64,000 bases of DNA, taken from positions 2,922,889-2,986,888 of the forward strand of contig CAWJGJ010000001.1 of the NCBI GenBank assembly GCA_963842395.1, in the 5' to 3' direction. Under the pieces are notes generated by a model. The model did not search any database. It was not told where the DNA came from and worked only from the letters and a program-made list of their open reading frames with translations. Positions 23,487 through 46,524 of this stretch are shown here, one piece after another; the stretch's first letter is position 1; every line of letters begins with the position of its first letter. The DNA comes from an uncultured Acidimicrobiales bacterium (lineage in GTDB: Bacteria > Actinomycetota > Acidimicrobiia > Acidimicrobiales > VFJN01). Position numbers and translations under genes: made by a program.

Positions 23487-25622
23487 TCAGCGCTCACGCC
23501 GGGGCGGCTGGAGCTGGGTGACGTTGTCGAGCGCCGTCGGGTCCTCGATGGCACCGAACACCTCGACGTAGCGGGGGTCGTTCGTCTCGAGGGGGATCGT
23601 GGCGTCCTCTCCGTCGGACCGAGGCGCGTGCCGCTGGCTTCCCCGCCGGATCCAGGTCGCGGCCGTGTGATCGCGGAGCGCACCCGGCACCGACGAGTCC
23701 TCACGCTCGGCAGCGGCAACGGCGTCCTGCGGGGTCTCGACACGCCGGCGCAATTCCCGGTCGCCGTACCACGGGCGCAGGCGGACCTTGGTCGGCCGCC
23801 CCGGGCCGTAGACCAACGCGGCCTCGCCGTCCGCCAGGTGATCTGCGGCGTCGCCGCCCAACGAGCGGCGGTGCGAGTCGCGGTCCCATGGCGCCGGGAA
23901 CACCAGGCGGGCCGCGTGGTTCTGCACCACCAGCGGTGCCCTGTCGCCGTAGTGGGCTTCGACCTGCGTGACGTCCTGGACGACGCTGATGAGCTGGATG
24001 CCCCGCGACGACGCTGTCGACGCCACCCCCGCCAGGTCGTGGACCGGGGCGACGCCGACGACGTCGTCGAGCAGGACGAGCAGCGGCGGGTCGAGGGGGC
24101 GACCACGCTGTGCCGACGCCTCGTAGGCTGCGGCGAGCAGCCGTCGGACGAGCATGGCGCACAGGGGGCGGTACAACGCCTGGTCCTGCTCGGGGGTCGT
24201 CAGGTAGACGGTGGAGGTATCGCCGTCGAACAGCGCGGCAGGCTCGATGTCCTGGCGGTTCATCGACGCGGCCACCACGGGGTCCTGGTACACGCTGAGG
24301 ACGTCGCTCATCGCCTGGAGGTACTGGGTCCGGGAGGAGTCGGGCCGCTCGAACGTCGACCGGTGGGCGCGTGCGGCGCCGCGGTCGACGGTGCTCAGGA
24401 CCTCCAGCACCTCGTCGCGCTCCTGGCGCTCGATCCACTGGATGGCCTTGCCGATGGTGCGGCCGCTGGCGACAGCGGCCAGCAGGTAGGGGGCGAGGGC
24501 CATCGACAGCGACCCCGCCGTGCCGTCGACCTCCCGATCGGCGTCCCCCGCACGGGTGCCGGCGGCCACGCGGGCGGCGAGCGTCATGTCCGTGGCGGTG
24601 CGTATGGCTCCGTGCCAGGTGCTGCACTCGGCCAGCACCGACCACCCCGAGCGCTGGTAGCGGGACACGCCCGCCGGGTCGTAGACGTGGACCTCGCCCT
24701 GGTGGCTGCGCCAGCCGATCGTCTCGTCGATGAGGTGCCCCTTCGTCGACGCCACCACCACCGGCCCCTCCCACTCGAGCACGGCGGGCACGGCGACGGC
24801 GCTCGTCTTCCCGGCCTGTGCGGGCCCGACCACCAGGAGGCTGTGGTGGTGACGGACGGCCAGCGGATGCCCGCCCGCGCCCGTCCCGACGACGACGCGG
24901 TGGCGCTCGCCCTTCGTGCGGCGGAGGGGCCGCTGGTCCGCGGCCGACGCCCAGGCGTGGCGGTCGAATGCGCCGCCCGGCCGCGCGGGACCGGGACGCG
25001 CCCTGTCCGCGAGGCGGCGGTCGGCATCGAACCCTGCACCGGCTCCGGTGCCGGCACCGCCGGACGAGGTGTGCAGGGCGGCCCACGCCAGCAGGGCGAC
25101 GAGCCCGACCAGCACGGCCAGCACGATGAAGGCCCCCCACCACGCGGCCGCTCCCGGGACCGACCCACCGTCGTTGACCGGCGCCCACGCCCCCGCGGGA
25201 TCGCCGGGATCGCTGGCCAGCCGGCCGATGATGCCCGGGGCGTCGGTGAGCGGATAGCTGGGCCAGTCGCCGCTGAACGCGAGCGCCGAGACGTGGCCCA
25301 CCACCAGCGGGAAGGCGGCGACGGCGGCCACGGGCAGCGCCCAGACGAGGATGGCGTCGTCCAGGGTCTGGCCGTCGCCACCACCCTTCGCCCTCGCCTG
25401 GGAGGCGATCTTGCGGTCGAGGCTTCCCGTGCTCTGGCGGATCTTGCGGTCGAGGTCGCCCTTGCCCCGCCGGATCTTGCGGTCGAGGTCGCCCTTGCTC
25501 CGCCGGATCTTGCGATCGAGGTCTCCCTTCGTCCGCCTGAGCTTGCGGTCGGCCTCGGCTGCGGCCTGGCGGCCACGCGCCCTCGCCTGCCTGTCGTCGG
25601 TGCTCACGACAGGACGATGCAC
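23487..25622 (-). CDS. type IV secretion coupling protein (VirD4/TraG/TcpA-like T4CP)
   Basis: 711-aa ORF. N-terminal 11-aa repeats, two TM helices, Walker A VVGPAQAGKTS and Walker B PLLVLLDDV. It is the last gene of the minus-strand train. Confidence 0.85.
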   Translation of the reverse strand: MHRPVVSTDDRQARARGRQAAAEADRKLRRTKGDLDRKIRRSKGDLDRKIRRGKGDLDRKIRQSTGSLDRKIASQARAKGGGDGQTLDDAILVWALPVAAVAAFPLVVGHVSALAFSGDWPSYPLTDAPGIIGRLASDPGDPAGAWAPVNDGGSVPGAAAWWGAFIVLAVLVGLVALLAWAALHTSSGGAGTGAGAGFDADRRLADRARPGPARPGGAFDRHAWASAADQRPLRRTKGERHRVVVGTGAGGHPLAVRHHHSLLVVGPAQAGKTSAVAVPAVLEWEGPVVVASTKGHLIDETIGWRSHQGEVHVYDPAGVSRYQRSGWSVLAECSTWHGAIRTATDMTLAARVAAGTRAGDADREVDGTAGSLSMALAPYLLAAVASGRTIGKAIQWIERQERDEVLEVLSTVDRGAARAHRSTFERPDSSRTQYLQAMSDVLSVYQDPVVAASMNRQDIEPAALFDGDTSTVYLTTPEQDQALYRPLCAMLVRRLLAAAYEASAQRGRPLDPPLLVLLDDVVGVAPVHDLAGVASTASSRGIQLISVVQDVTQVEAHYGDRAPLVVQNHAARLVFPAPWDRDSHRRSLGGDAADHLADGEAALVYGPGRPTKVRLRPWYGDRELRRRVETPQDAVAAAEREDSSVPGALRDHTAATWIRRGSQRHAPRSDGEDATIPLETNDPRYVEVFGAIEDPTALDNVTQLQPPRRER
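25407..25560 (-). repeat. 33-nt in-frame tandem repeat (about 4.6 units) in the T4CP 5' end
   Basis: GATCTTGCGGTCGAGG... recurs at 25407, 25440, 25473, 25506 and (degenerate) 25539. It encodes RKIRRxKGDLD units. Confidence 0.9.
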
Positions 25623-25677
25623 GCCCGTGCAGGGAGGAACGCGGGCGGTCCGCGTCGCCGCCCACCCCCGCGTGTCG

Positions 25678-27435
25678 TCAGTACACGGAGATGTGGACGT
25701 GGTCGATGTGCATCGCGGTCAGGTTGCCGGGTGTGTCTTCGTCGTACGGGAGCGGGACAAAGCCGTAGGTGGCGGACCAGATCGTGTCCCGCCAGATCAC
25801 GTACCAGACCTGGTACTCCGCCGCGTGGGCGATGAGCCACCGCACCATCTCATCGCCGTGCGCGAGGTACTGGGCGTCCGGCTGCTGCCCGAGAGGCGCC
25901 ATCATCATGTCGCACGCCCGGCCGAGCGGGTGCTCGCTGGGACCGTTGCGCTGGCCGTAGCAGCCCATGCCGTGTCCACGGCCGAAGGTCGGGACGAGGA
26001 CGTCGATCAGCCGTCGGAGCTGGGGCGTCATCTGTGGTTCGTCGGGGTAGCGCGCGGTGCTGCCGAGCGGCGCACCGATCGGCAGCAGGTCGGCCACCGC
26101 ACTCCGGTACTGCGAGGCGTGGGCGACCACAGCGTCGATGTACGCGGTGTTGGGGTTGTAGGCGTGCAGCGCGCCACGGACGTCACGGGCGACACCGTTG
26201 CGGGCCAGCATCCGGGCGGCGCCGTGGGTGGCGTCCTCCCAGGTCCACGGGTCGGCGATCCCGTCGCCGTCACCGTCGGTCGCATACCCCTGGCCCTCCT
26301 GGCCCTCGGGTACCGGCGGCCCGGCGACCTCGAGGTCGTACTGGCCCGCCGAGCTCCGCCACGTCGACCCCAGGAACTGCATCGGCCCGCGCGCACCCTT
26401 GCCGTTGATCGTGCCCCGGGGGTTGCAGCCCGCGAGGGGGGACCGCCCGTGATCGCACTCCTGCTTGCCCACTCCGGCCAGGATCGCCCAGTCGACGCTC
26501 CACCGTGCCGCCGCGGAGCAGTAGGCGTCCATGGCCGGCTCGGGGATCTCCGTGCGCTCGACCATGGCGCCCACCGAGCCCGGGCAGGCCGGGCCGATCG
26601 CACCCGTGGGCTCGGCCGAGGCGCTCAGCGCCGCCTGGATCGCCTCGGCGTCCGCCCTGGCGTCGGCCAGCCCGATCATCGGGAGGACGACCAGGAGGTT
26701 GACGAACGCGAAGAGGAGGACGGCGAGGATCAGCAGCCTGCGCAAGGTCCGCCGGCGGGTGCCCCTGCCGCGCCGCCGGAGGTCTACCCGGGAGCGCCGC
26801 CGCCCGCGGCGCTTGGCGGCCCTGCGCGCGGTGCGCCCCCCGCGCTCGCGAGCGGGCTCATCGCCACCTGGCGGCCACGCGTCGTCGGCGCGCCGGTCCG
26901 CATCACCGCGTTCACCGGGGTCGCCGGCGTGGCCCCGTCGCGCGCGCTGCGCTGCCCGGCCGGCGCGGACCGCCGGCAGGAGGCGCGAGGCTCGGGCCGA
27001 CCGCGAGCGGGCGGGGCGACCACTGCGCCCGGCGGGACGCGCACCCCCACCGATCGGCCGCACGCCCGATCGCGCGCCCAGCCCGGTCGTCCCACGTGTC
27101 CGGCGCCCGCGCCCGCCCGAGGCGGCACCCGCCGAGCGGGACGCACCACGGCCCGCAGGCCCGGCCGACCCCCGCGCGCCGACGCCCGCCGGCCGCGCCG
27201 ACCCCGGCGACCCCCGGCCGGCGGAACCGGCCGCGCTCGGTGCGCCACGACCGGCGGAACCCGCTGCAGTCGACGCGCCCCGCCCAGCCGAGCCCGCCGC
27301 GCTCTGCGCGCCACGCCCGGCGGAACCGGCCACCACCTTCGCGCCCTGCGCCCCGGCCACCACCGCCGTCTGGCCGGCGCGCGTCGCGACCTGGGCGCCT
27401 GTCTTGGCGGCGACGGCGACAACCTGGGCGGGCAC
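25678..27435 (-). CDS. bifunctional cell-wall hydrolase: lytic transglycosylase (SLT) plus LAS/M15-like peptidase domain (VirB1 functional analogue)
   Basis: 585-aa ORF. Arg/Gly-rich repetitive N-terminus, one TM helix, SLT motifs LAGVGKQECDHG and GPMQFLGSTW, and a C-terminal SEHPLGRACD...HIDHVHIS metal-binding pattern. Confidence 0.8.
   Translation of the reverse strand: MPAQVVAVAAKTGAQVATRAGQTAVVAGAQGAKVVAGSAGRGAQSAAGSAGRGASTAAGSAGRGAPSAAGSAGRGSPGSARPAGVGARGSAGPAGRGASRSAGAASGGRGRRTRGTTGLGARSGVRPIGGGARPAGRSGRPARSRSARASRLLPAVRAGRAAQRARRGHAGDPGERGDADRRADDAWPPGGDEPARERGGRTARRAAKRRGRRRSRVDLRRRGRGTRRRTLRRLLILAVLLFAFVNLLVVLPMIGLADARADAEAIQAALSASAEPTGAIGPACPGSVGAMVERTEIPEPAMDAYCSAAARWSVDWAILAGVGKQECDHGRSPLAGCNPRGTINGKGARGPMQFLGSTWRSSAGQYDLEVAGPPVPEGQEGQGYATDGDGDGIADPWTWEDATHGAARMLARNGVARDVRGALHAYNPNTAYIDAVVAHASQYRSAVADLLPIGAPLGSTARYPDEPQMTPQLRRLIDVLVPTFGRGHGMGCYGQRNGPSEHPLGRACDMMMAPLGQQPDAQYLAHGDEMVRWLIAHAAEYQVWYVIWRDTIWSATYGFVPLPYDEDTPGNLTAMHIDHVHISVY
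27199..27330 (-). repeat. 33-nt in-frame tandem repeat (4 units) in the hydrolase 5' region
   Basis: Encodes AGSAGRGAQSA / AGSAGRGASTA / AGSAGRGAPSA / AGSAGRGSPGS. Confidence 0.85.
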
Positions 27436-27449
27436 CTACGTCTCCATCG

Positions 27450-30134
27450 CTAGTCGAGGCCCCGGCGCTTGGCCACGCTGCGGCCGTGCTGCCTGACGAT
27501 CTTGTTGTAGAAGCGGTCCGACAGCGCATGGCGAGGGAAGCGCCACGGCGCCTCCTGCTCGGTGACGATGACCTCGTGGATGAGTCGGTTGCGCGGGGCG
27601 GGCGCGGCCTGCGAGGACGCCTCGCGAGGAGCAGGGCCGCGGCTGCGCGGCGGCCCTCCGCTCTGCACCCGAGCGGTGCCTCGCGGCGCACCCGGGACCG
27701 CGGGCTGTCCCGGCCTGCCGCCATCAGTCCCCCCAGGCCCGCCCGGCCCAGCCGGGATGGCCGGCCCACCACGGACACCGGGACCGCCGGGCCCAGCGGG
27801 GACCGCGGGTCCACCGCGGACACCCGGACCGACGGCGCGGCCGGGCGCGGCCGCCCTGCGGCCGCGCTGACGCGATGCCGGCCGTGCACGTCGACGACTC
27901 GACCCCGACCGTGCCCGCCGACGGCCCGACCTCCGCCCCTGGCGCGCCCGGCGACCGCCCTTGCCAGCCGAACCAGGTGGGCTCGCCGCAGTTGTGCCGT
28001 CCGCGGGATCGGGCTCGGGCCCGGGCTCGGCTCCGGGCTCGGGCCCGGGACCGGGACCAGGACCGGGCGGGGGCTCGACGTCGCCATACCCCCCGCGGGG
28101 GCCCGGGCCGTGCGATCCGCCGGGGACGTCGCTGTAGTACGTCTTGTGGGCCACGGCCGCCATGCGGTCGCCTCGTCGGCGTGCCTTGATGATGTTGTGC
28201 CAGGACCGTCGCTCCCGGGCCCGCTGGGCGATGATCTTGCCGCCGAGGGTGGCCGGCGCGGTCACCATGCGGCGCATGCGAGCATCGGTGGACGCGAGGT
28301 CCATGCCCGCGGAGACAGGTCCGGCGGCGGCGCCTGCGGCCGTGAACCCGGACAGCTTGGTGGCCACGGTCGACGCCGCCGCCTGCGTACCGGCCACGAT
28401 CCGCCTGCGTCCCGCCATGCCCGCGATGACCAGCAGGTTCCCGATCATCAGGCGCTCGATCAGGCTGACGTCCGCCATCGCCGTGAACATCGCCTGCATC
28501 GCCAGGAGCAGCAGCGACAGCACCAGGCTGACCCCCAGCACGGCGGCGATCCCCTGTACCACGGCGCCGACCCACTGCCACGCGAGACGGCGGCCGCCGC
28601 CGGGGGCGATCGCGAAGACCGCGGCCAGCGGGGCCAGCATGAAGCAGACCGCGACGAGGAACTTGGCCGCGAGGAGCGTGACCGACGAGGCCAGCAGCAG
28701 GAAGAACACGAAGCTCGCCATCACCAGGTTGAGCAGCGCACCGATCCAGCGCTCGCTGCGCGGGTCGGCGTTGAACTTGGCCGCGGCCCGGCACTCCTCG
28801 GCGGCGGCGGTATCGCCCGCCTTCTCGGCCGCCGCGGCCGCCCGCTCCATGTGGCGACGTGGCCAGCCGCTGTCGCCGTGGGGCCCGGCGGACACGATCT
28901 GGTTTCGGGCCGTCCGGCAGCGCTCGGTGGCGAAGCTGCCGCCCCAGTTGAGGTAGTCGTAGGTGTCCTCGATGAACACCTGCTGGATGCTCTTCTGTGC
29001 CGGCGCCAGGAACGCGCGGCGTTGCTCGGCGCACGCCTCCCCCGAGGGACTCGAGCCGGGCGTCGGGTCACACGGCGCCTTGTCGGCCGACGCGGCGAAC
29101 ACGAGGTTGGATCCCCGGTCCATCGTGTCCCACGCCCCGCTCAGGTAGCCGTCGAGGTTGCCCATCAGCCCCGCGGTCAGGGCGATCAGGACCACCGATG
29201 TGAGCAGCTCGCTGGCCGCGGAGCCGGCTCGCCGGCGGAGGATGGCGAAGCCCGCCCACCCGATGAGCACGACCCAGGCGACGTGTTTCAGCTCGAGCGC
29301 ACCGACGATGCGTGTGTTGTAGGCGTGGCTGATCCCCAACACGATCGGGTCGAACTTCCGGACGTTGAACGAGAAGGCCCAGCCGAGGAGCCACAGCCCG
29401 AGCTGGATCGCCGTCGCCGCCATCGTGAACAGGAGGTTCGCCGTGATGCCCCACAGGTCGTCGAGGAGTCCCGCGGTCAAGCCGAAGCTCTCGTCGTACC
29501 CGAGGTCGAAGTTGTTCGCCGGGTAGGTGCCCCAGCAGTGGTCGGGGATGAACGCGTCCTCGATCGGCTCGATCGACGGGAGGTCGCCGCACCCCCTGTG
29601 CACGTCCGCCTCGATGAGCATGCACTCGCGATCCGACTTGATGGCGTGCAGGTACCACTCGGGCGCGTACTTGCCTTCCGGTGGCGTCCACTTCTGGAGC
29701 TCGCCGACGAAGAACTCCCACGGGGTCGTGCCGAACCGCCCACCGGTCACGGTCCCGATCGCGATCTTCAACAGCGTCATCAGTCCCTCGACCCCCTTGA
29801 GGGCCAGCTTCATGGCGATCACCGGCGGGAGCGCGTCCCGGAAGCTCCACTCGTCGAAGTCGAACGGGCGCGTCGGGTCGAAGGGCACCATGTCCTGGAG
29901 CCCGTTGACCGCCCGGCACACGTTCCAGACCGCGAATGGGATCTCGTCGTCGCCCGGCGCCGCGGCCCGACCTGCGTCGAGCGCGGGCTGCGGCCCGCCC
30001 GGGGCGGCGGCCGCGGGCTGCGCGCCGCCCGACGCCGCCACGAACCCCACGGTCGCGACCACGATGACCGCGGCCAGTGCGGCCGCGAGGCCGCGCCGTC
30101 CCGGGAGACGACGCCGGACGCCCGCGAGCCTCAC
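27450..30134 (-). CDS. large polytopic membrane protein, VirB6/TrbL/TcpH-like T4SS channel component
   Basis: 894 aa from GTG 30134, which overlaps the VirB4 stop in a GTGA arrangement. Signal peptide, Cys-containing extracytoplasmic domain and two blocks of TM helices. The Pro/Gly/Arg-rich tail contains a 45-nt repeat at 27729-27830. The assignment rests on position and topology only. Confidence 0.65.
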   Translation of the reverse strand: MRLAGVRRRLPGRRGLAAALAAVIVVATVGFVAASGGAQPAAAAPGGPQPALDAGRAAAPGDDEIPFAVWNVCRAVNGLQDMVPFDPTRPFDFDEWSFRDALPPVIAMKLALKGVEGLMTLLKIAIGTVTGGRFGTTPWEFFVGELQKWTPPEGKYAPEWYLHAIKSDRECMLIEADVHRGCGDLPSIEPIEDAFIPDHCWGTYPANNFDLGYDESFGLTAGLLDDLWGITANLLFTMAATAIQLGLWLLGWAFSFNVRKFDPIVLGISHAYNTRIVGALELKHVAWVVLIGWAGFAILRRRAGSAASELLTSVVLIALTAGLMGNLDGYLSGAWDTMDRGSNLVFAASADKAPCDPTPGSSPSGEACAEQRRAFLAPAQKSIQQVFIEDTYDYLNWGGSFATERCRTARNQIVSAGPHGDSGWPRRHMERAAAAAEKAGDTAAAEECRAAAKFNADPRSERWIGALLNLVMASFVFFLLLASSVTLLAAKFLVAVCFMLAPLAAVFAIAPGGGRRLAWQWVGAVVQGIAAVLGVSLVLSLLLLAMQAMFTAMADVSLIERLMIGNLLVIAGMAGRRRIVAGTQAAASTVATKLSGFTAAGAAAGPVSAGMDLASTDARMRRMVTAPATLGGKIIAQRARERRSWHNIIKARRRGDRMAAVAHKTYYSDVPGGSHGPGPRGGYGDVEPPPGPGPGPGPEPGAEPGPEPDPADGTTAASPPGSAGKGGRRARQGRRSGRRRARSGSSRRRARPASRQRGRRAAAPGRAVGPGVRGGPAVPAGPGGPGVRGGPAIPAGPGGPGGTDGGRPGQPAVPGAPRGTARVQSGGPPRSRGPAPREASSQAAPAPRNRLIHEVIVTEQEAPWRFPRHALSDRFYNKIVRQHGRSVAKRRGLD

Positions 30135-33381: not shown

Positions 33382-33389
33382 GCCGCGGC

Positions 33390-34827: not shown

Positions 34828-34896
34828 ATGGTCGTCCCCGAATGCGCAGCCCGAGGCTCCCTCCTCCCCCGGCCCGGGGGAATCCGGCGGGGGTGA

Positions 34897-36249: not shown

Positions 36250-36319
36250 TGTGGGACAACCGAGCGAGCGGAGGGCCTGCTCGGTGCGATCGGCGTGCTG
36301 CTCGGCCAGAGCCAGCGCC

Positions 36320-38395: not shown

Positions 38396-38853
38396 GGCGT
38401 GCCGTCCCCCTGCACCGCGCGGGCGGAGGCCGACACGGCGTAGCCCACCGAGCCCGGTGCCACGAGGATGCGCAGGTCGGTCTCGCCGCTGACCGACACG
38501 GTGACCTCGTCGAGCGCCTCGTCCACCACGGCACTGCCGCTGTACCCCAACGCGCTCAGGTGGGCCTCGGCCGCCCGCCGGGCGGCGTCCGGGTCGAGCC
38601 GCAGCTCTCCCTGCACGGCCGCCGTCTGGTCGATCTCCTGCACCCCGGCCCTGGCGGCAGAGGCGGCCGCGCCGAAGGCGTCGCTGCGCTCCCGGAGCGC
38701 CCGCCCGCCGTCGAACACCAGCCCGACCGTCCCCCAGCACGCGACCGCCACGGCCACCGTCCAGGCACTCGCGAAGCCCGCGTCACGGCACCCTGCGCCC
38801 CGGCGGGTCGGGGACGGCACGGGGTCGCGCGTGCGCTCGGACCGCCCGGTCAC
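38392..38853 (-). CDS. TadG-like / TadE-family pilus assembly protein (pseudopilin-like)
   Basis: 153 aa from GTG 38853 (GTGA overlap with the upstream stop). N-terminal hydrophobic segment AGFASAWTVAVAVACWGTVGLVFDGG. Confidence 0.65.
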   Translation of the reverse strand: MTGRSERTRDPVPSPTRRGAGCRDAGFASAWTVAVAVACWGTVGLVFDGGRALRERSDAFGAAASAARAGVQEIDQTAAVQGELRLDPDAARRAAEAHLSALGYSGSAVVDEALDEVTVSVSGETDLRILVAPGSVGYAVSASARAVQGDGTP

Positions 38854-39368
38854 GGCGCCTCGTCCTCGCGGTAGCGGTCGATGACCTCGACCGCCGACGC
38901 CGACACGGTCATCGTGCCCGGCAGGGCCAGCAGCGTCAGCTCGGAGAGATCGACCTCGCAGGTGATCTCGACGGTCACCGTCGCCGGGTCGGCCGCGACG
39001 TCGATGACCGGCTCGGCGAAGTCCATCGTCACGCACATGGGCGACCCGGCCTCGGCGATCGCGGCCGCCTGGGTCTCCGCGGCCCCGGCCTCGGCGGCCG
39101 GGTCGCGGGCGAGGCTGATGGTCCGGGCCGCCGTGCGCGCCGCGGCCTCCACGTGGGCCGAGCCCACGGTCATCCGCCCGGCGAACACCACGGCAGCGAT
39201 GAAGGCCATGAAGACGCCGATGAGCGCCACCAGCTCGGCGATGGCGGTCCCCCGGTCGCCGCGGCCCTGCGGGCGGCGGTGGAGCCGGAGACGGCGCCGC
39301 AGGCGGCGCAGGCGACGCACGCGGCCGAGGCGGCGCAGAGACCTGCCGGCGGCATCCCGGGGCGTCAC
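38850..39368 (-). CDS. TadE-like pilus assembly protein
   Basis: 172 aa from GTG 39368 (GTGA overlap). Has the DRGTAIAELVALIGVFMAFIAAVVF TadE-type N-terminal segment. Confidence 0.75.
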   Translation of the reverse strand: MTPRDAAGRSLRRLGRVRRLRRLRRRLRLHRRPQGRGDRGTAIAELVALIGVFMAFIAAVVFAGRMTVGSAHVEAAARTAARTISLARDPAAEAGAAETQAAAIAEAGSPMCVTMDFAEPVIDVAADPATVTVEITCEVDLSELTLLALPGTMTVSASAVEVIDRYREDEAP

Positions 39369-39691
39369 TCGACCACCCGCTCGACCGGCGCGGACAGGGT
39401 CACGTGCACCGGGACGTCGAAGAACGGCACGACCGTCGCCACGTGGCCGTCCAGGCTGATGGTGGCGGTCACGGCCGTGCGCTGGACGTCGATGCCCTCG
39501 GCGGCGAAGCCGCCGGTCTGGACCAGGAACTCGCCGGCCATCGCCTCGCCGGCCGCCTCGCTGCCGCCCTCGACCCGCGCCGCGTCGAGCCCGTGCTGCG
39601 CGGCGGCGGTGGCCACGGCGCGGCCGTAGTACCACAGGCTGATCTGCACGACCGTGAACAGCACGGTCATGAGCAGGGGCACCACCGCCAC
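39365..39691 (-). CDS. TadE-like pilus assembly protein (start uncertain)
   Basis: 108 aa from the first available start, GTG 39691. The TadE-type N-terminal motif (KGDRGAIAASVAVVPLLMTVLF) begins upstream of that GTG, in frame with the flp stop codon. Confidence 0.65.
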   Translation of the reverse strand: MAVVPLLMTVLFTVVQISLWYYGRAVATAAAQHGLDAARVEGGSEAAGEAMAGEFLVQTGGFAAEGIDVQRTAVTATISLDGHVATVVPFFDVPVHVTLSAPVERVVE

Positions 39692-39748
39692 GCTGGCGGC
39701 GATGGCCCCGCGGTCACCCTTGGCGCGGGGGCGGGCACGGCGGTGCCG

Positions 39749-39961
39749 TCAGATCCCGAACTCCAGGCCCTCGACCGCGCCGGTGAGCACGACGAGCAGC
39801 GCGGCCCCGATCGTGGAGGCCACGAGCAGGAGCACGGCGATCATCGCCACCTCGTCGCTCAGCCCCCCGTCCTCGGTGCGGCGGTCGTGCCAGGCGGCGG
39901 CGACCGCCACCAGCACGGATGTGGCGGCAGCCGTGGCCCGCCGCCGGATCGTCTCGGTCAT
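39749..39961 (-). CDS. flp: Flp-family type IVb/c prepilin
   Basis: 70 aa from ATG 39961 with GGAGA 7 nt upstream (ORF track start 39976). Candidate processing site DGG/LSDEVAMIAVLLLVASTIGAALL, with Glu at about +5 and a hydrophobic helix. Confidence 0.6.
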   Translation of the reverse strand: MTETIRRRATAAATSVLVAVAAAWHDRRTEDGGLSDEVAMIAVLLLVASTIGAALLVVLTGAVEGLEFGI

Positions 39962-39980
39962 CAACCCATCTCCCATGTCG

Positions 39981-40877
39981 CTACTGCTTGATCTGGAGCA
40001 TCGCCACCAACGCCGGGTAGCAGAGGAACAGCAGGAACCCGACCACGAGCAGCACGCTGGGCAGGCTCATCCGCTCGGTGACCGAGGCGGCCGCCAGCTC
40101 GCCCTCGGCCGCCGTCCGCTCGCGCATCGTCCTCGCCTTGGCGGCGACCGTGACGCGCACCGCGGCACCCTCCTCCCCCGCCAGGGCCACCGTGCTGGCC
40201 AGCTCGGACAGGTCGGCCACGCCCAACTCGGCACCCAGGCGCTCGAGCGCCACCCACGGCGGCTCGCCCCGCACGTACCCGGCCTGGAGGGCGCCGCGCA
40301 GCTCGGCGAAGGCCCAGCCCTGCCCCGAGCTGCCCGCGGTCTCCATGGCCTGCTCGACCCCGCGCCCCGAGGCCAGCGTCATCACCACCACGTCGCACCA
40401 CGACGACAGGGCATGGGTGAAGGCCCGGCGGCGCTCGGCCGCCTCGGCCCGCAGGCTCACGAACGGCAGTACCAGGCCGGCGGTCGACGCCGCGAGCGCG
40501 ACGGCCCCGGGCAGGAAGCCCGGCAGTGGCAGGCCCAGCGCCCAGCCCAGGAACCCGATCCAGGGCCCGATCACGAGCGGCAGCAGGACGTACACGGCGA
40601 CCCGCACAGCCTCGACCTCGGGCTCGCGGCCCACGACCCGGAGGTCGGACCGGAGGGCGTCGAGCCGGCGGGCGAGCGGGGGGATGTGGTCGAGCAGGAA
40701 GCCCCCGATGCGGGCGTCGCGCTGGTCGAGCCCGTCCGCCACCGGACGCGGCGCCACGGGCAGCCGGCTGACACGGGCGAGCGCGGCGTCGAGCGGCTCG
40801 GGCAGCGGCCGCAGGCCCGTCCACGCCAGCCACAGCCCCAGCCCCGACGTGAGCCCGGCCACGAGGGCGACGGTCAC
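39981..40877 (-). CDS. tadC: type II secretion system F-family protein TadC
   Basis: 298-aa polytopic ORF with a T2SSF-like core, located directly downstream of tadB. Confidence 0.8.
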   Translation of the reverse strand: MTVALVAGLTSGLGLWLAWTGLRPLPEPLDAALARVSRLPVAPRPVADGLDQRDARIGGFLLDHIPPLARRLDALRSDLRVVGREPEVEAVRVAVYVLLPLVIGPWIGFLGWALGLPLPGFLPGAVALAASTAGLVLPFVSLRAEAAERRRAFTHALSSWCDVVVMTLASGRGVEQAMETAGSSGQGWAFAELRGALQAGYVRGEPPWVALERLGAELGVADLSELASTVALAGEEGAAVRVTVAAKARTMRERTAAEGELAAASVTERMSLPSVLLVVGFLLFLCYPALVAMLQIKQ

Positions 40878-40914
40878 GGTCCCGCCGCCACGACGGACCT
40901 CGTCGCGGCGGGCC

Positions 40915-41754
40915 TCACGTGTCCGACCCGCTCACGAGGAACCGCTCGATCCCGCGGGACCGGCCCATGCGGGCCATGGTCCACACCGCGGTCGCCCAGA
41001 TGCCCACCACCGCGGCCAGGACGAGCTGGCCGCCCGGCGTGCTGTAGGGCGCCAGGTAGCTGCGTCCGATCAGGGAGAAGACGCCGACGAACAAGCCCAT
41101 GATCGCCAGCACGGAGCGCATGTCGGCCCGCGGACGCGCCCGCGCCACCTCGATGCGGCGGTGCATCCGGGCCTCCTCGCGGGCCACCGACGCCAGGTCG
41201 TCGAGCACCGACCGGATCTGGCGCCCGCCCGAGCGGGCGGCGAGGCGCAACGCCGTGACGACCAGGTCGCCGACCGGGTGGGCCAGGTCGTCGGCCAGGT
41301 CGTCGAGCGCCGGGCCGAGGGGGTCGTAGGGCAGCCGCCGCGCCAGCCGCATGACGTGGGGCCGGATGGTGGCGGGCGCGCCCGGGGCGGTGGCGACGAG
41401 GACGCCCTCGATCCCCCGCGGCGTGCCGGTGGCGTCGCGCAGCATCTCGGCCCACGCGGTGAGGGCCTCGGCCACCTCGGCGCCCTCGGTCTGGCGCCGC
41501 AGGGGCGACGACCGGCCCGTCAGCAGCCCGGCGGCCGCGGCGGCCGCGAGGGCGGCGACCGGCCACCGGGTCAGCACCAGCACCGCGAGCCCGACGCCGA
41601 CCACCAGCACCACCCGCTCCGGGCCCGGCGCCTGGCGGGTGCGGTGCGGGGCGCGCGCCGCCCGGGGCACGACGGGGCGCAGGCGGGCGCCCGACACGGC
41701 CAGCAGCACGCCCGCGACCACGGCCACGCCGGACAGCAGGGCGACGGCGGTCAC
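40915..41754 (-). CDS. tadB: type II secretion system F-family protein TadB
   Basis: 279 aa from GTG 41754 (GTGA overlap with the cpaF stop). T2SSF-like membrane protein. Confidence 0.8.
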   Translation of the reverse strand: MTAVALLSGVAVVAGVLLAVSGARLRPVVPRAARAPHRTRQAPGPERVVLVVGVGLAVLVLTRWPVAALAAAAAAGLLTGRSSPLRRQTEGAEVAEALTAWAEMLRDATGTPRGIEGVLVATAPGAPATIRPHVMRLARRLPYDPLGPALDDLADDLAHPVGDLVVTALRLAARSGGRQIRSVLDDLASVAREEARMHRRIEVARARPRADMRSVLAIMGLFVGVFSLIGRSYLAPYSTPGGQLVLAAVVGIWATAVWTMARMGRSRGIERFLVSGSDT

Positions 41755-43098
41755 CAGCCACCCCCGTCCCGGTGCAGGGACGGCTCGTAGCCGTGCTCGA
41801 CCAGCAGGTCGAGGGTGACGACGGGGATGGGCGCGCGGGAGTTGCGCACCGCCGACCGGTCGGGCCCGGGGACGAACCAGTCGTTGGTGATGATCTGGCG
41901 GTCGGTGGGGTCGTAGTCGAGGACCTGGGTGATCTCCGACACGACCCGGCGCCCGTCGGGGGTCAGGTCGAGGTAGACGATCAGGTCGAGGGCGAAGGCG
42001 GCGGTCTGCAGCACGTCCGCCCGCTCGAAGCTGGCGCCGCCGCGGCGGGCGTAGTTGACCAGCTTCTCGAACGTCTGGCGCGACGACCGGGCGTGCAGCG
42101 TGCACAGCGTGCCGGCGATGCCGTCGCACGCGGCCTCGAGCATGTACATGACCTCGGGCCCGCGCACCTCGCCCACCACGATGCGGTCGGGGGCGTGGCG
42201 CTTCACGGCCCAGGTCAGGTCGGCGAGGGTGACGGCGCCCTCGCCCTCCATGTTGGCGGGCCGCTCGACCAGCTCGAGCACGTGGTCGTGCCGCCGGGGA
42301 TCGAGCCCAAGCTGCAGCTCGCGGTCCTGCTCGAGCACCACGATGCGCTCGCTCGGCGGGCACTCGTGCAGCAGGGCCCGCACGAGGGTCGTCTTGCCCC
42401 GCCCCATGCCCCCCGCCACCAGGATGTTCAGCCGGGCACGCATGGCGGCGCGCAGCAGGCTGGCGACGCCCTCGTCGTACATCTTCCACTCGCGGACCAG
42501 CGTCTCCTGGTCGGCGTCCACCAGCGCGTGGCGCCGCACCGACACGTACGGCCGGTCCGACACCCATGCCACCGCGGCGAGGCGCGACCCGTCCGAGAGC
42601 TGCAGGTCGAGCAGCGGCCGCGACGGGGAGAACTCCTTCTCGATCTGGGCGGAGCCGTCCTCGAGCCCCAGGCGGCCGCCCTTGCGGGCCAGGGCCTGGA
42701 TCTGCCCGACGAGGTCGTCGTCGCTGGACGCCACGGGCGCCACCCGCTGCTCGCGGCCGTCCACGGTGCGGATCCGGACGTTGTCGTGGCCGATCACGAA
42801 GATGTCGGTGACGTCGGCGCGGGCCAGGTAGGCCTCGAGGCCCGGCAGCTGCGAGAACAGCCCGGCCAGCACCGCATCGCGGATGCGGCCGTCCTCCTCC
42901 GGGGTGCGGGCGAGCTCGCCGCGCTCGGTGTGCGGCCCGCCACTGGTCGTCGAGCTCGCGCTGCAGGATCGCCAGGGCCATCTGGGTGCGGTCGGCGCCG
43001 TCCAGCGGGGCCAGGCCGTGCTGCTCGCGGCGGCCCACCTCCTCGCCGATCTCGCCGACCACGATGCGCCGCAGCCGCTCCACCGCCGGATCACTCAC
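41751..43098 (-). pseudogene. tadA: CpaF/TadA pilus-assembly ATPase, reading frame broken near 42930
   Basis: The N-terminus (VSDPAVERLRRIVVGEIGEEVGRREQHGLAPLDGADRTQMALAILQRELDDQWRAAH) is read from GTG 43098. The rest (TERGELARTPEEDGRIRDAVLAGLF...) is one base out of frame and runs to TGA 41751. Walker A AGGMGRGKTT, plus VGEVRG. Confidence 0.85.
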
Positions 43099-43282
43099 TG
43101 GTGCACCCTTCGGGATGCACGCAGTGACCGATCGGCACTTCGTGCCGGGCAACGCACTGCGCCCATGGTTCGCTCGCTGCGCTCGCTCACTGGTGCACCC
43201 TTCGGGATGCACGCAGTGACCGATCGGCACTTCGTGCCGGGCAACGCACTGCGCCCATGGTTCGCTCGCTGCGCTCGCTCAC
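43094..43282. repeat. perfect 92-bp tandem duplication (2 units) filling the tadZ-like/cpaF intergenic spacer
   Basis: Units 43096-43187 and 43188-43279 are identical by eye. CTCAC (GTGAG on the coding strand) is present at all three junctions. Confidence 0.9.
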
Positions 43283-44013
43283 GACGGGACCCCGGCGGTC
43301 GTGGGGGCGGCGAGACCGCGCAGCTCGGCGAGCGCGAACGCCGCCGACCGGGCGAGGCGCGAGCGCAGCCAGCCCCGCGACACCCCGCGGGCCCACAGCG
43401 TCGCCGCGCCTCGGGGATCCCAGGCGAGGGCGCCCGCCAGCGGCACGTCGAGGTGGGCTGCGATCTCGGCGGGGGCGTACGGCCGGCGGCCGACGACGAG
43501 CACGGCCACCGGCACGCCCGAGGCGCGGCGCACCTGGTCGATGCCCAGCCGGGCGCTCTCGACGGCGGCGAGCGTGGGGCGGGTGACGACCACCACCAGG
43601 TCGGCGCCGGCGATGCGGGACGACGCCGGCTGGCTCGGCTCCCACCGCCCGGCGTCGACCACCACGTCGGGGGCCGCGGCGCGCAGGCCCCGCAGCCACC
43701 GGTCGCCCGCCGAGCCGATCACCGATTCGGCGACGTGCCCGGCGGTGGGGGCGAGCAGTGCGGGCAGCCCGGGCGGCACGAGCGCGAGGTGGGCCGCCAC
43801 CGGACCGGCGTCGGGCTGCCGCCGGAGGGTGGCGGCCACGTCGACCAGACCCCAGACGGCCGGGGCCCCCGAGAGCACCTGCACCGAGCCGCCCGCGGGG
43901 TCGAGCTCCACCAGCAGGCCGTCGCCCGTGCGACCGGCCACGCCCGCCAGCGCGGCGGCCGCGGTGGTCACGCCGGGCGAGCCCTTGGTCGACATCAGCA
44001 CGAGGGACGTCAC
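43279..44013 (-). CDS. TadZ/CpaE-like (Ssd-type) ParA-fold protein with degenerate Walker A
   Basis: 244 aa from GTG 44013. VLMSTKGSPGVTT replaces the canonical KGGxGK[ST]T. Located between cpaB and cpaF. Confidence 0.7.
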   Translation of the reverse strand: MTSLVLMSTKGSPGVTTAAAALAGVAGRTGDGLLVELDPAGGSVQVLSGAPAVWGLVDVAATLRRQPDAGPVAAHLALVPPGLPALLAPTAGHVAESVIGSAGDRWLRGLRAAAPDVVVDAGRWEPSQPASSRIAGADLVVVVTRPTLAAVESARLGIDQVRRASGVPVAVLVVGRRPYAPAEIAAHLDVPLAGALAWDPRGAATLWARGVSRGWLRSRLARSAAFALAELRGLAAPTTAGVPS

Positions 44014-44057
44014 GGCGCGACCGCGCCCGGCTGCGACGGCGACCCGGAGGGACCCAC

Positions 44058-44777
44058 TCAGCCCTGCCCCACCACGGTGAGGACCACCCGCTGATCGCCC
44101 GCGGCGAGGCCGACCTCGAGTGCCGAGGACCGCGGCACCACCAGGGTGACGTCGCGCTCGCCGGTCTGGTCGTCGACAGGGCCCACGTCCAGCAGCCACC
44201 CCGGCACCGACATGGCACCGCTGTCGCTCGACTGCTCGGGCTGGACGCCCACCTCCACTTCCGCTCCGGCCCGCAGGTCGACGGGTGCGTGCCCCGGTTC
44301 GAGCGCCACACCGACCTCCGCCTCGGACGCCGACACGAGCCGCTCGCCCGCCGCGAACACGTGGTCGGGCGCCAGCACGGTGCCCGCGGGCACCGCGGTG
44401 GCCGTCACCCGGCCCACCATCTCGCTCAGGTCTCCGCCCGGCACCGTGGCCACGCCGGGGTCGGCGGCCACCCGCTCGACCCGCAGGTCGTCCTCGTCGA
44501 GGGTCTCGTAGGCGCCGATGTCGTGGGCCGCCACCAGCACCGCGACCCGGGCACCGGCCGACAGGTAGAGCGCGGCGAACACCCAGCCGCCCAGCAGGGC
44601 GAGGCAGGCGCCGGCGGCGAAGCGGCCCCAGCGGCGGCGCATGGGCAGCCCGTGGGCCGACCGGGGGGCGCCCACGGCCCGGCGCCCGTGGGCACGGGCG
44701 ACGGCGGGCGAGGGCGGTGACGCCGGCGGGGGCGGGGGCGGCGGCGGCACCGCCGGGCTGGGCGAGGCGACGGTCAT
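44058..44777 (-). CDS. cpaB: Flp pilus assembly protein CpaB/RcpC (SAF-domain)
   Basis: 239 aa from ATG 44777 (ATGA overlap with the upstream stop). Poly-Pro N-terminus, one TM helix, and a SAF-like segment DIGAYETLDEDDLRVERV. Confidence 0.75.
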   Translation of the reverse strand: MTVASPSPAVPPPPPPPPASPPSPAVARAHGRRAVGAPRSAHGLPMRRRWGRFAAGACLALLGGWVFAALYLSAGARVAVLVAAHDIGAYETLDEDDLRVERVAADPGVATVPGGDLSEMVGRVTATAVPAGTVLAPDHVFAAGERLVSASEAEVGVALEPGHAPVDLRAGAEVEVGVQPEQSSDSGAMSVPGWLLDVGPVDDQTGERDVTLVVPRSSALEVGLAAGDQRVVLTVVGQG

Positions 44778-45871
44778 CCTCCGACCCCCACCTCGGCGTC
44801 GACGACGAGGCCGTGGATCTCGATCACTGGCCGGGCCAGGTCGGTCGACAGCGTGATGGGATCGAAGCTGCCGGTCTCGCCCGGGCCCTCCCAGGTGACC
44901 GACCACGTGACGCTCACGGTGCCCGGCCAGCCCTCGCCGCCCCTCGCGGTGCGGTGCAGGTAGGTGTGGGCGCAGGCGCCCGGGCGCTCGGCCTGCTCGA
45001 CAGGGTCGACCTCGGGGTCGAAGACGGTGCCCGCGCCGGCGCACATGACGTCGTCGGCGCCCGGCTCGCCCGGATCGAAGCTGAGCTGCGGCGTGGCGGT
45101 GAGCGTCACACACACGCCCTGCTGGCACTCGGGCCCCTCGACGATCGTTGGCTCCCAGTTGGACACGGCGACGAAGGTGGGCACCTCGATGAAGCCGCGC
45201 GACCCCACAGGAGGGCTGGCGACGACAGCAGGATCGAGCAGGGTCGCCTGGACCTCGACCCACACGTCGGCCGCTACCTCGGCGGGTGTCGGGGGCGGGT
45301 CGAAGAATCCGAGGAGGTCGAGCACCCAGTCCACGTCCTCCGAGTAGAAGAGTCCCTCCCGTGGGCACACGAAGTAGAGAAGGGTTCCGCCCGGGCCACT
45401 GTCGGGGAAGTAGTAGGAGAGCAGACTCTGGTCGGGGTGGGGGACGTACTGGCAGATCTCGCTGGGGCGCAGGCCGGTCGCTCCCACGATGCTCACGCAG
45501 TCGCCCCAGCCCGGTGCCTCCTCGGCGCAGACCGCGGCCGCGTCGATGCCGCCACCACCGCCACCCCCGCCGCCTCCACCGCCACCTCCACCCGGCGGGT
45601 CAGTCGGGCCGCCGCCGCCGGGGCAGCCGACCTCGACGGTGGTCCCGCCGTTCGTAGTGCCCGTACCGGGCTCGCAGGGCTCGGCGGCCGCGGCCCCCGA
45701 AGCGCCGGTGGTCGCAGGCTCGGCCGTCTCGGCGCCGGCAGAGGCGGGGGTTGCCGGTGCCGCCACCGCCCCGGCCGCCACCAGAGCCGCCGCCAATGTC
45801 ACGGCAGCAAGTCGCGCCCAGCCCGCGGGCATGGTCGAGTGTCGGAACCTCATGGTCGCTCGCTTTCGCAT
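44774..45871 (-). CDS. secreted Cys-rich protein with (Gly)15 tract, function unknown
   Basis: 365-aa ORF. Signal peptide ending ATPASA, a run of 15 Gly (mixed GGN codons, about 45540-45600), and about 10 Cys. Confidence 0.7.
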   Translation of the reverse strand: MRKRATMRFRHSTMPAGWARLAAVTLAAALVAAGAVAAPATPASAGAETAEPATTGASGAAAAEPCEPGTGTTNGGTTVEVGCPGGGGPTDPPGGGGGGGGGGGGGGGIDAAAVCAEEAPGWGDCVSIVGATGLRPSEICQYVPHPDQSLLSYYFPDSGPGGTLLYFVCPREGLFYSEDVDWVLDLLGFFDPPPTPAEVAADVWVEVQATLLDPAVVASPPVGSRGFIEVPTFVAVSNWEPTIVEGPECQQGVCVTLTATPQLSFDPGEPGADDVMCAGAGTVFDPEVDPVEQAERPGACAHTYLHRTARGGEGWPGTVSVTWSVTWEGPGETGSFDPITLSTDLARPVIEIHGLVVDAEVGVGG

Positions 45872-46524
45872 CGTCCTGTGTCGGCCCGCACCGAGAGCTC
45901 GCGCAGCCGCCAGCGGCCGTCCACGCGCACTGCGACGCCGTCGCCCCGCTGCAGCCGCAGCGCCACCCGCTGTTGCACGGTGCCGTCCGGACCGACGACC
46001 ACCAGCCGCTGGGCGAGGCAGTAGGGGAAGCCGACCTCGTCGTCGGAGACCGTGGCCAGGTCGCCGTCGATCGACGACACGGTGGCCGGGTGGGCGTCGC
46101 TCGCGGGCCGGGTCAAGAGGCCCTCGTCCGCGCGCTGGACCCAGAGGCCCAGCAGGTCGGCGGCGGGCTCGCTGCCCGGCTCGTACAGGTCCAGGTACTC
46201 CTCGATGAGCGGGTGGGACTCGTCGCGCGCCACGGACGGATCGGCGACGATCTCGTTCACCACCCGGTCGTTCCGACCCAGCAGGGTCTCGATGTAGGGC
46301 CGCACGGCGTCGGTGTCGCTGCCCGGCGGTTCGGTCGAGCGATCAGGGGCGCGGGCCCCACCCGCCGCGTCACCCTCACCGGCCGCCGGACCGGCGTCGG
46401 CGTCGCTGCCGCACGCCAGGACGGGCAGCGGCGCGAGGGCCAGGAACAGCCACAAGGCGGCCCACGGTGCGCCCCATGGCGCCCCGGGCCGGCCGCGGCG
46501 CTCGCCGCGCACCGTCGTCTCCAT
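45850..46524 (-). CDS. lipoprotein of unknown function (first gene of the Tad/T4SS train)
   Basis: 224 aa from ATG 46524. Lipobox LPVLAC-G. The ORF track extends to 46614, but that part is Arg-rich. Confidence 0.6.
   Translation of the reverse strand: METTVRGERRGRPGAPWGAPWAALWLFLALAPLPVLACGSDADAGPAAGEGDAAGGARAPDRSTEPPGSDTDAVRPYIETLLGRNDRVVNEIVADPSVARDESHPLIEEYLDLYEPGSEPAADLLGLWVQRADEGLLTRPASDAHPATVSSIDGDLATVSDDEVGFPYCLAQRLVVVGPDGTVQQRVALRLQRGDGVAVRVDGRWRLRELSVRADTGRCESERP

Follow-up and report, generated by a model that had tools for sequence, protein, structure and literature searches.

A chromosomal gene neighbourhood of Acidimicrobiales joining a Tad pilus operon, a LysM-SARP pair and a Gram-positive-type type IV secretion system

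Gene content and order of the cluster

The stretch of DNA examined here, 64 kb of ~75% G+C from an uncultured Acidimicrobiales bacterium (in the following, the window), carries on its minus strand a gene cluster at positions 23487-46524. Analysis of the coding frames by G+C content at third codon positions (GC3), together with the listing of open reading frames (ORFs), resolves this region into 20 consecutive co-directional genes. They appear to form three head-to-tail units, namely a complete monoderm Tad/Flp pilus operon, a LysM gene with a gene for a SARP-type activator, and a complete Gram-positive-type type IV secretion system (T4SS) with its coupling protein. Read from 5′ to 3′, the genes encode a lipoprotein-like protein, a secreted Gly/Cys-rich protein, CpaB-like, TadZ/Ssd-like, CpaF, TadB, TadC, Flp, two TadE-like and one TadG-like protein and a LysM protein, followed by a BTAD/SARP protein, a TcpC-like protein, a small protein with two transmembrane (TM) segments, TcpE, VirB4, VirB6/TrbL, a wall hydrolase and a VirD4-type type IV coupling protein (T4CP). 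Matches above the Pfam cut-offs were obtained for T4SS-DNA_transf, TraG-D_C, TrbL, AAA_10, TcpE, BTAD, LysM, Tad, TadE, T2SSF and T2SSE. An initial annotation, made from the sequence letters alone, had described the same gene content and order, which the Pfam and NCBIfam searches confirmed; its count of 21 genes has to be lowered to 20, the number to which its own gene list likewise adds up.

All eight start/stop overlaps that had been reported (ATGA, GTGA and one of 22 nt) were recovered in place. They lie within each module and between the TadG-like and LysM genes, while the SARP gene is preceded by a gap of 70 nt and the TcpC-like gene by one of 69-84 nt. With these gaps, the translational coupling of the Tad and T4SS machines that had been proposed is not supported. 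An ORF of 431 aa that abuts the T4CP gene (22179-23474, minus strand) was rejected as not coding, as it is the antisense of a conserved Exo_endo_phos (EEP) gene.

Relatives of the cluster were collected in a scan of one genome per species, which yielded 27 loci, nearly all of them in metagenome-assembled genomes (MAGs) of Acidimicrobiales/Acidimicrobiia; a metagenome scan with CpaF added more, and the neighbourhoods were mapped by tBLASTn. Where single loci have to be told apart, they are given by L numbers. Unless stated otherwise, all genes described below lie on the minus strand.

The Tad/Flp pilus module

The upstream part of the cluster contains the components by which Tad systems are recognized: a TadA/CpaF ATPase, a split TadB/TadC platform, and an Flp prepilin with TadE/G pseudopilins. 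The secretion ATPase CpaF/TadA (41751-43098) matches Pfam T2SSE with 74.4 bits and the NCBIfam model TIGR03819, 'TadA family conjugal transfer-associated ATPase', with E=5.8e-51, below the equivalog cut-off. For the platform protein TadB (279 aa), the GC3 frame led to a reading frame at 40915-41754 that corrects the earlier one; its start overlaps cpaF (GTGA), and the protein has four hydrophobic segments and homologues that are 52-65% identical. It has no match in Pfam or NCBIfam and is assigned from these features and its position, while the second platform protein, TadC (298 aa, 39981-40877), matches T2SSF with 46.9 bits. The Flp-type prepilin (70-75 aa, 39749-39976) has no Pfam match either; it carries a processing-site-like RR-E-GG/LTD(D/E)VAM followed by a hydrophobic helix, and this arrangement is conserved in seven orthologues. 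Among the pseudopilins, the first TadE-like protein (39365-39691) matches Pfam TadE with 27.8 bits, and the second (38850-39368) does so with 18 bits, below the cut-off, and has a conserved RG(S/T)AxxEL and GTGA overlaps on both sides. The TadG-like protein (38392-38853) matches Pfam Tad (TadE/G-like) with 28.1 bits and is conserved in 10 loci.

Between the head of the cluster and cpaF, the region 43279-44777 shows one change of coding frame. Together with the NCBIfam matches, this frame change is read as two genes, one CpaB-like and one TadZ-like. The CpaB/RcpC-like SAF-domain protein (239 aa, 44058-44777, in the GC3 frame and with an ATGA overlap with the upstream gene) matches TIGR03177 pilus_cpaB with E=9.7e-9, below the curated cut-off. 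The TadZ/CpaE/Ssd-like protein of the ParA type runs from 43279 to ~44013, with an uncertain start between 43995 and 44199, and matches TIGR03815 CpaE_hom_Actino with E=7.8e-10, again below the cut-off. Its Walker A reads TKGSPGVTT and is devoid of the GK[ST] lysine; its homologues are 48-58% identical.

The two genes at the head of the cluster have no Pfam match. The first gene of the conserved cluster encodes the lipoprotein-like protein (224 aa, 45850-46524, alternative start 46614) with a lipobox-like ...VLAC. It is paired with the gene for the secreted Gly/Cys-rich protein (365 aa, 44774-45871), which has a signal-anchor segment and a poly-Gly stretch. In L033, L035, L039, L042 and L044, the Tad genes are immediately preceded by homologues of the lipoprotein gene, and Gly/Cys-rich homologues, 30-47% identical, occupy the same position in these five loci. 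In L033/L034, the gene pair has undergone a tandem triplication (L033 3151-8117).

A candidate prepilin peptidase is encoded 5 kb outside the cluster on the plus strand (51781-52614). This membrane protein matches Pfam Peptidase_A24 with E=0.0089, below the cut-off. Because a homologue that is 36% identical adjoins the cluster in L035 (5145-5687), immediately upstream of the lipoprotein gene, the protein is probably the prepilin peptidase TadV.

LysM and SARP genes between the pilus and secretion modules

The LysM-domain membrane protein (691 aa, 36320-38395), whose start overlaps the stop of tadG (ATGA), has TM segments and a Pfam LysM match of 24.4 bits. Within its gene, at 37152-37250, three 33-nt tandem repeats that are 93-100% identical encode an 11-residue repeat. 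The following gene (34897-36249) encodes the SARP-type transcription activator, with a predicted disordered N-terminus of ~175 aa and a winged helix-turn-helix (wHTH) plus BTAD region at residues ~175-435 (Pfam BTAD, 52.7 bits). The initial annotation had called this protein a SARP, a label that was open to doubt since the Pfam searches gave no match to Trans_reg_C or wHTH in the protein, since precomputed annotations of the family list PF03704 alone, and since the domain is fused to LysM in relatives. The predicted structure removed this doubt. The conserved 260-residue core, which aligns SARP-like and is 70-82% identical among close relatives, is modelled by AlphaFold2 with pLDDT >90, and the best Foldseek matches of the model are the SARP domains of AfsR in the transcription-initiation complexes 8K60/8HVR (E=4.5e-9, TM-score 0.72, ~260 columns) and EmbR. 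The label is thus right in the light of the match of the predicted core structure to AfsR/EmbR.

In L001, L015, L021, L033, L039 and L042, LysM and SARP form a single ORF of 580-1430 codons. The product of this fused ORF would be a membrane-anchored activator with a LysM ectodomain, an architecture that is unusual for the SARP family. In the window, 70 nt and a change of frame separate the two parts (36249-36342). Loci without Tad (L001, L024) retain the LysM-SARP pair beside the T4SS, and loci without an adjacent T4SS (L039, L042) retain it beside Tad. As judged from gene order, the pair is the bridge between the Tad and the T4SS machines.

The T4SS module

The seven genes downstream of SARP contain the components that mark a monoderm T4SS of the MPF-FA/FATA class: VirB4, VirB6-, TcpE- and TcpC-like components, a wall hydrolase and a T4CP. 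Profile searches uphold the assignments of VirB4, VirD4, VirB6 and TcpC made in the initial annotation, for TcpC at the level of the family only; all NCBIfam scores of the T4SS proteins are far below the equivalog cut-offs. The best supported component is the VirB4-family ATPase (946 aa, 30131-32971), which matches Pfam AAA_10 with 196.5 bits and, among the NCBIfam models, TcpF best (5e-51), with VirB4_CagE at 1e-12. Across 19 homologues, neither its Walker A (G473-S480) nor its Walker B (D695 E696) varies. Downstream of it lies the VirB6/TrbL-like polytopic membrane protein (894 aa, 27450-30134; Pfam TrbL, 33.7 bits) with its TM segments, and upstream the TcpE-like (VirB3-type) protein with two TM segments (32968-33381; Pfam TcpE, 31.8 bits at a cut-off of 29.9).

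The TcpC/VirB8-like bitopic protein (33790-34827, with a start that is probably at 34812) has one TM segment and was assigned with a family profile. This profile matches only PDB 3UB1, the TcpC protein of pCW3 (E=2.9e-4), and Pfam TpcC is matched by seven of 12 family members (best 1.5e-9); the cluster's own protein has no match to a hidden Markov model. The TcpC-like protein can also be aligned, over the full length of both proteins, with the 'conjugal transfer protein' of the Streptomyces plasmid pSVL1. Next to it, the small 2-TM hairpin protein (~75-100 aa, 33390-33692) was recognized by family alignment, with a basic RT(R/K)S loop, and is present in 27 loci. Four of 18 family members weakly match the Pfam TrbC/VirB2 pilin family (best E=6.6e-4), amid noisy hydrophobic matches. 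Gram-positive T4SSs are generally said to be without pilins. The protein is possibly TcpD- or VirB2-like; its hairpin topology resembles that of VirB2, and the weak pilin matches are no more than a hint.

The bifunctional cell-wall hydrolase (25678-27435) consists of a basic low-complexity N-terminus, a TM segment and SLT-like and LAS/M15-like domains. The match to SLT_2 is below the cut-off (19.9 bits); the protein carries the SLT-like motif GPMQF and the LAS/M15 signature SEHPLGRACD...HIDHVH (SxHxxGxAxD...HxH), and it is homologous to orthologues annotated as SLT, VanY or VldE. The module ends with the VirD4-type T4CP (706-711 aa, 23487-25622), which has two TM segments, matches Pfam T4SS-DNA_transf with 74.2 bits and TraG-D_C with 30.8 bits, and contains a conserved Walker A, GPAQAGKTS. 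Single-sequence searches against the PDB returned no match for VirB4 and T4CP and a marginal match only for the hydrolase. In the cytoplasmic N-terminus of the T4CP, 4.4 tandem 33-nt repeats (25407-25551) encode a basic 11-residue repeat (KGDLDRKIRR); at the same position, the orthologues have a charged, non-repetitive region.

Promoter-like motifs and probable transcription units

A motif GCGCATC-N7-9-GTG precedes the start of the TcpC-like gene in 13 of 13 relatives, the spacers being otherwise diverged, and many of these relatives have a TTGCGT- or GCGCTT-like element ~18 nt further 5′. This conserved motif suggests that the start of the TcpC-like gene in the window is 34812. The shorter form GCATC-N7-8-(A/G)TG occurs nine times on both strands of the window, five of these sites being in the cluster and on the minus strand (46522-46537, 43196-43210, 43104-43118, 34810-34825 and 25605-25620). 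Three of them coincide with the starts of the lipoprotein gene (46524, GCATC-N8-ATG), the TcpC-like gene (34812) and the T4CP gene (25607, GTGCATC-N8-GTG). The motif also occurs once in each copy of a 92-nt tandem element between tadZ and cpaF, in the last copy 8 nt 5′ of the cpaF start. Before the T4CP gene it is conserved in three of 12 related loci. As the motif stands at four gene starts, the cluster is probably transcribed as several units, and these sites are probably leaderless-type starts of at least four transcription units. Scans for sigma-70 and terminator consensus sequences were uninformative at 75% G+C.

Conservation of the Tad-T4SS neighbourhood in relatives

The relatives with the same gene order have VirB4 proteins that are 54-82% identical to that of the window, and the close VirB4 homologues that bear a name come from Acidimicrobiales MAGs. 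The full order Tad-LysM-BTAD-TcpC-small-TcpE-VirB4-VirB6-hydrolase(-T4CP) was found in L007, L013, L016 (Microthrixaceae), L019, L020, L025, L026 and L035. The order is unchanged in L029, the LysM protein being replaced there by a giant LysM-type protein of 1939 aa, and L015, L021, L027, L028 and L033 keep it with inserts. When a neighbour-joining tree of VirB4 is rooted with the homologue from a Streptomyces plasmid, each of the deep branches includes Tad-linked copies, and stand-alone or rearranged copies are nested.

Twenty distinct loci have enough sequence upstream of the T4SS for a comparison, and 14 of them carry Tad and/or LysM-BTAD there, while six do not. In L001 and L024, LysM-BTAD is inverted between VirB6 and T4CP and no Tad genes lie within 8 kb, and in L014, L017, L030 and L031 neither Tad nor LysM-BTAD is found upstream. 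The distant Tad loci L039 and L042, whose CpaF is ~60% identical, have kept Tad-LysM-BTAD and have no T4SS within 3 kb. One 660-kb JGI contig carries three paralogous T4SS cores, of which L029 is Tad-linked and L030 and L031 stand alone. The conservation in relatives on which the initial annotation had staked the Tad-T4SS linkage therefore holds across the deep Acidimicrobiales branches of VirB4, but not for the six of 20 loci without Tad upstream.

Chromosomal site and absence of mobile-element hallmarks

The surroundings of the cluster are conserved as well. The order T4CP-EEP-PCMT recurs in L003, L007, L025 and L026, and T4CP-EEP-PCMT-asd-lysC-bldD is also found in L053, with a T4CP identity of only 50%. 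The block bldD-lysC-asd-PCMT-Exo_endo_phos (17940-22257) is syntenic with positions 12057-18140 of this distant relative, and since this housekeeping block is shared with it, the window lies in a stable core part of the chromosome. VirB4 is 70-74% identical in the same relatives whose housekeeping PCMT is 73-83% identical.

As had been noted in the initial annotation, relaxase, integrase and replication genes are not in view; none of the corresponding Pfam domains is present in any ORF of the 64 kb. Neither are there tRNA genes in the 64 kb, nor were att-like direct repeats found flanking the cluster. The GC content, 0.71-0.78 in the cluster against 0.68-0.78 in the flanks, agrees with the earlier statement that both have the same composition. 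Relaxase-like genes were also sought among the T4SS genes of relatives, where only housekeeping genes were found: the interspersed genes encode FTCD, a molybdopterin oxidoreductase, methyltransferases, an ABC transporter and an amine oxidase. An integrase, an att/tRNA target and a compositional contrast, by which an integrative and conjugative element (ICE) is recognized, are thus all missing from the window, and the position is orthologous in distant relatives. The view that the cluster is not a classical ICE is borne out by this fixed chromosomal position, the conserved flanks and the absence of hallmarks of mobile elements. On the evidence of synteny and divergence, the cluster is a chromosomally fixed, vertically inherited neighbourhood of Acidimicrobiales and not a mobile element.

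A possible joint function of pilus and secretion system

From the genes and their arrangement we infer the cooperation of pilus and T4SS, the control of the T4SS by the SARP, and the nature and direction of transport of the substrate. We tentatively favour, in the knowledge that it may well prove wrong, a reading in which contact through the Tad pilus is combined with a SARP-controlled transfer of DNA by the T4SS. The Tad pilus would give cell-cell or surface contact, and LysM-SARP, encoded at the end of the pilus operon, would then activate the T4SS unit, which has its own conserved, promoter-like and probably leaderless start ~70-85 nt downstream. A channel of VirB4, VirB6, TcpC and TcpE, fed by the T4CP, would move a cytoplasmic macromolecule between cells, and the substrate would most likely be DNA that is processed without a canonical MOB relaxase. 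The proposal draws on the identity of the components, the recurrent gene order at one chromosomal site, the divergence in step with PCMT, the missing ICE hallmarks, the bridging LysM-SARP pair, the start motifs, the conserved ATPase motifs of VirB4 and Walker A of the T4CP, and the precedents for type IV pili acting with a T4SS (PMC9045228, PMC12857230, PMC9905601). A bolder form of this proposal, which we regard as doubtful, sees in the cluster an order-wide chromosomal hybrid of a Tad pilus and a relaxase-independent T4SS under a membrane-anchored LysM-SARP switch, perhaps with its own VirB2-like pilin, that would exchange chromosomal DNA.

Several observations weigh against the proposed Tad-assisted, SARP-controlled DNA transfer. 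No relaxase or oriT is known for the system, and no relaxase-family Pfam match was obtained in the 64 kb or in the interspersed ORFs of relatives, a search that covered these regions of the genomes only and that a relaxase of unknown type may have escaped. The Walker B of the T4CP reads LLDD, and its second acidic residue varies in orthologues (DE, DG, DQ); moreover, no T4CP was found within 7-10 kb downstream in L015, L016, L027 and L028, and in L052 it lies 4 kb away behind unrelated genes. On the pilus side, cpaF shows an apparent frameshift at ~42912-42945: the conserved N-terminal 56 codons (VSDPAVERLRRIV...QWRAA) start at GTG 43098 in another frame than the remaining gene, a switch that could reflect a sequencing indel or genuine damage to the gene of the pilus ATPase. 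Regarding control by the SARP, inspection by eye of the DNA 5′ of the conserved start motif of the TcpC-like gene revealed no convincing direct repeats of the heptameric kind that SARPs bind, and since two further GCATC hits fit the starts of unrelated genes, this motif may be a generic leaderless-promoter signal of the organism rather than specific to the cluster. As to the link between the modules, L015, L021, L027 and L028 carry 3-8 kb of opposite-strand genes between BTAD and the TcpC-like gene, and co-transcription is therefore not universal; Tad, SARP and a nearby T4CP are all missing from L030 and L031, whose neighbours are housekeeping genes; and the pairwise identities of Tad and T4SS genes correlate positively but imperfectly (r 0.4-0.9), and the distances of these genes only moderately (r 0.4-0.7), with L016 discordant.

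Part of these observations would also be expected if the Tad pilus and the T4SS were independent machines that have remained neighbours through inherited synteny, with the SARP regulating one of them or something else. This alternative, which we consider unlikely, draws on the opposite-strand inserts between the modules in four to five lineages, the T4SS without Tad in six of 20 loci, the Tad-LysM-SARP loci without an adjacent T4SS (L039, L042), the separate promoter-like starts and the only partly congruent distance patterns. It is at odds with the persistence of the neighbourhood down to 54-60% VirB4 identity, while the Tad-side genes outside the block differ between loci, as well as with the LysM-SARP pair, which travels with either module, and the linked copies in every deep branch. 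Somewhat less unlikely in our estimation, by analogy with Patescibacteria (PMC12102498, PMC12857230), is a T4SS domesticated for the translocation of proteins or effectors or for cell-cell interaction, with the Tad pilus adhering to a partner or prey and no DNA being moved. Such a machine would fit the missing relaxase in the 64 kb and in relatives, the retained T4CP, the bifunctional hydrolase and the large VirB6. However, no candidates for effector, toxin or immunity genes were noticed in the cluster or its conserved flanks, the Acidimicrobiales are free-living and not known as epibionts, and protein export by Gram-positive T4SSs is poorly documented.

The direction of transport could also be reversed, so that a competence-like import machine, comparable to Ced/Ups or ComB, takes up DNA from a partner held by the pilus. 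The core of VirB4, VirB6 and two small 2-TM proteins does resemble Ced (PMC9905601), stand-alone cores without a T4CP exist, and Tad pili are needed for transformation in Micrococcus luteus (PMC4322843). Ced and ComB, however, work without a T4CP, whereas the cluster and most of its relatives keep one, and no linked genes of the ComEA/ComEC type or for DNA processing were found, which makes import, in our view, quite improbable. Least of all do we expect an immobilized ICE remnant, or a mobile ICE with an unrecognized or outlying relaxase, integrase or att site. The attribution of MOB-less T4SSs of Actinobacteria to unknown relaxases (PMC3548315) and the homologous six-gene core, with a VirB4 36% identical, on ~140 Streptomyces plasmids speak for an ICE; it is, however, hard to bring into line with the same position and flanks where T4CPs are only 50% identical, the matching composition, the lack of a tRNA, att repeat or integrase, the housekeeping genes interspersed in relatives and a divergence in step with PCMT.

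The usual view of Gram-positive T4SSs is that they belong to mobile elements and have no pilus. The Acidimicrobiales, a poorly studied order of Actinomycetota that is abundant in soil, water and wastewater, appear as a whole to keep a monoderm T4SS as a core chromosomal trait beside a Tad pilus operon and a membrane-tethered SARP. Cooperation of the two machines, if real, would make the cluster the first Tad-assisted T4SS and the Acidimicrobiales, after Patescibacteria, the second bacterial lineage with a domesticated monoderm T4SS; the cluster would then be a candidate for the mechanism by which Acidimicrobiia exchange chromosomal genes or secrete on contact. Should the reading as a hybrid apparatus be true, the cluster would correspond, on the bacterial side, to the Ups/Ced system of archaea, and genes could flow among Acidimicrobiia by a route not known before. 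The action of LysM-SARP on the T4SS promoter would be a concrete, testable regulatory link.

Comparison with known systems

The initial annotation knew of no described system with this layout. For Actinomycetota this stands, since no description of a Tad-T4SS linkage in Actinomycetota/Acidimicrobiia was found in the literature searched, but the concept has precedents in R64, TP114, PAPI-1, Ups/Ced and Patescibacteria. T4SS transfer assisted by a type IV pilus is represented by the Gram-negative elements R64/TP114 (IncI) and the PAPI-1 island, in which, as in the cluster, type IV pilus genes are linked to VirB4/VirD4 transfer genes, the thin pilus of R64/TP114 and the pilus of PAPI-1 serving mating-pair formation (PMC9045228, PMC12857230). 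These systems reside on plasmids or ICEs that encode relaxases, and they use type IVb pili together with T4SSs of the diderm kind (Dot/Icm-like or GI-type), whereas the cluster combines a type IVc (Tad) pilus with a monoderm T4SS of the Tcp/ICEBs1 type and is chromosomal, vertically inherited and without a relaxase that could be found.

Two further systems are chromosomal. In Sulfolobales, Ups pili act together with the DNA importer Ced (PMC9905601, PMC11868833). Like the cluster, Ups/Ced is chromosomal and relaxase-less and has a type IV pilus alongside VirB4-like, VirB6-like and small 2-TM proteins. Ups/Ced serves the exchange of chromosomal DNA. Unlike the cluster it is archaeal, and the likeness considered here is one of composition. 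To our knowledge, the ups and ced genes of Sulfolobales are not adjacent, and we know of no T4CP, TcpC/VirB8-like protein or wall hydrolase in Ced. Patescibacteria, on the other hand, have a chromosomal, mostly relaxase-less T4SS derived from MPF-FATA (PMC12102498, PMC12857230). It shares with the cluster VirB1/3/4/6/8/D4-like components and a chromosomal location across the lineage; type IV pili are important there and VirB2-like pilins possible (PMC12102498, PMC12857230). Patescibacteria differ in being obligate epibionts of another phylum, and neither a Tad operon nor LysM-SARP has been reported beside their T4SS.

In gene content and order, the T4SS module agrees with the Gram-positive conjugation modules of the Tcp (pCW3), ICEBs1 and Tn916 type, with a TcpC/ConB-like protein, small TM proteins, TcpE, VirB4 (with TcpF as the best NCBIfam match), a VirB6-like protein and a bifunctional wall hydrolase. 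These lie on mobile elements with TcpA/FtsK-like coupling proteins and MOBT or TcpM relaxases, in contrast to the chromosomal cluster with its VirD4-type T4CP and no relaxase in the 64 kb. Among plasmids, ~140 Streptomyces records encode a VirB4 with 35-36% identity across 815 residues; the six-gene core is found on linear plasmids. In pSVL1 of Streptomyces vietnamensis (NZ_CP010408.1, 114-122 kb; L032), genes for a TcpC-like, a small and a TcpE-like protein, VirB4, a VirB6-like protein and a wall hydrolase follow in the same order; unlike the cluster, they are plasmid-borne, the hydrolase is of the NlpC/P60 type, and no Tad or SARP gene lies within the 34 kb viewed. Conjugation in Streptomyces is normally attributed to TraB, and no description of a function of the six-gene core of these plasmids was found. 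As for the actinobacterial Tad pilus, DNA uptake in M. luteus proceeds through ComEA/ComEC. The Tad pili of M. luteus, which are required for transformation, resemble those proposed here as an actinobacterial Tad pilus serving DNA traffic (PMC4322843). The M. luteus system differs from the cluster, as no report of a T4SS was found for it and machinery of the ComEA/ComEC type is not linked to the cluster.

A 92-nt tandem element between tadZ and cpaF

The spacer of 180 nt between tadZ and cpaF, which had been described as filled with repeats, turned out to be a perfect tandem duplication: two copies of a 92-nt element lie at 43095-43278 on the minus strand (Tandem Repeats Finder period 92, 2.1 copies, 100% match). 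The GTGCATCC motif is present in each copy, and the start codon of cpaF comes from the last one. Neither the element nor the whole 64 kb has a match in Rfam; the fold of the element has a z-score of -2.5. At the same tadZ/cpaF junction, L040 carries a single copy (332-423) that is 94% identical, with flanking coding DNA that is ~72% identical to that of the window and a CpaF that is 59% identical. The other relatives are without the element and have a GTGA overlap of tadZ and cpaF instead. The 92-nt element could be a small insert that is mobile or carries a promoter.

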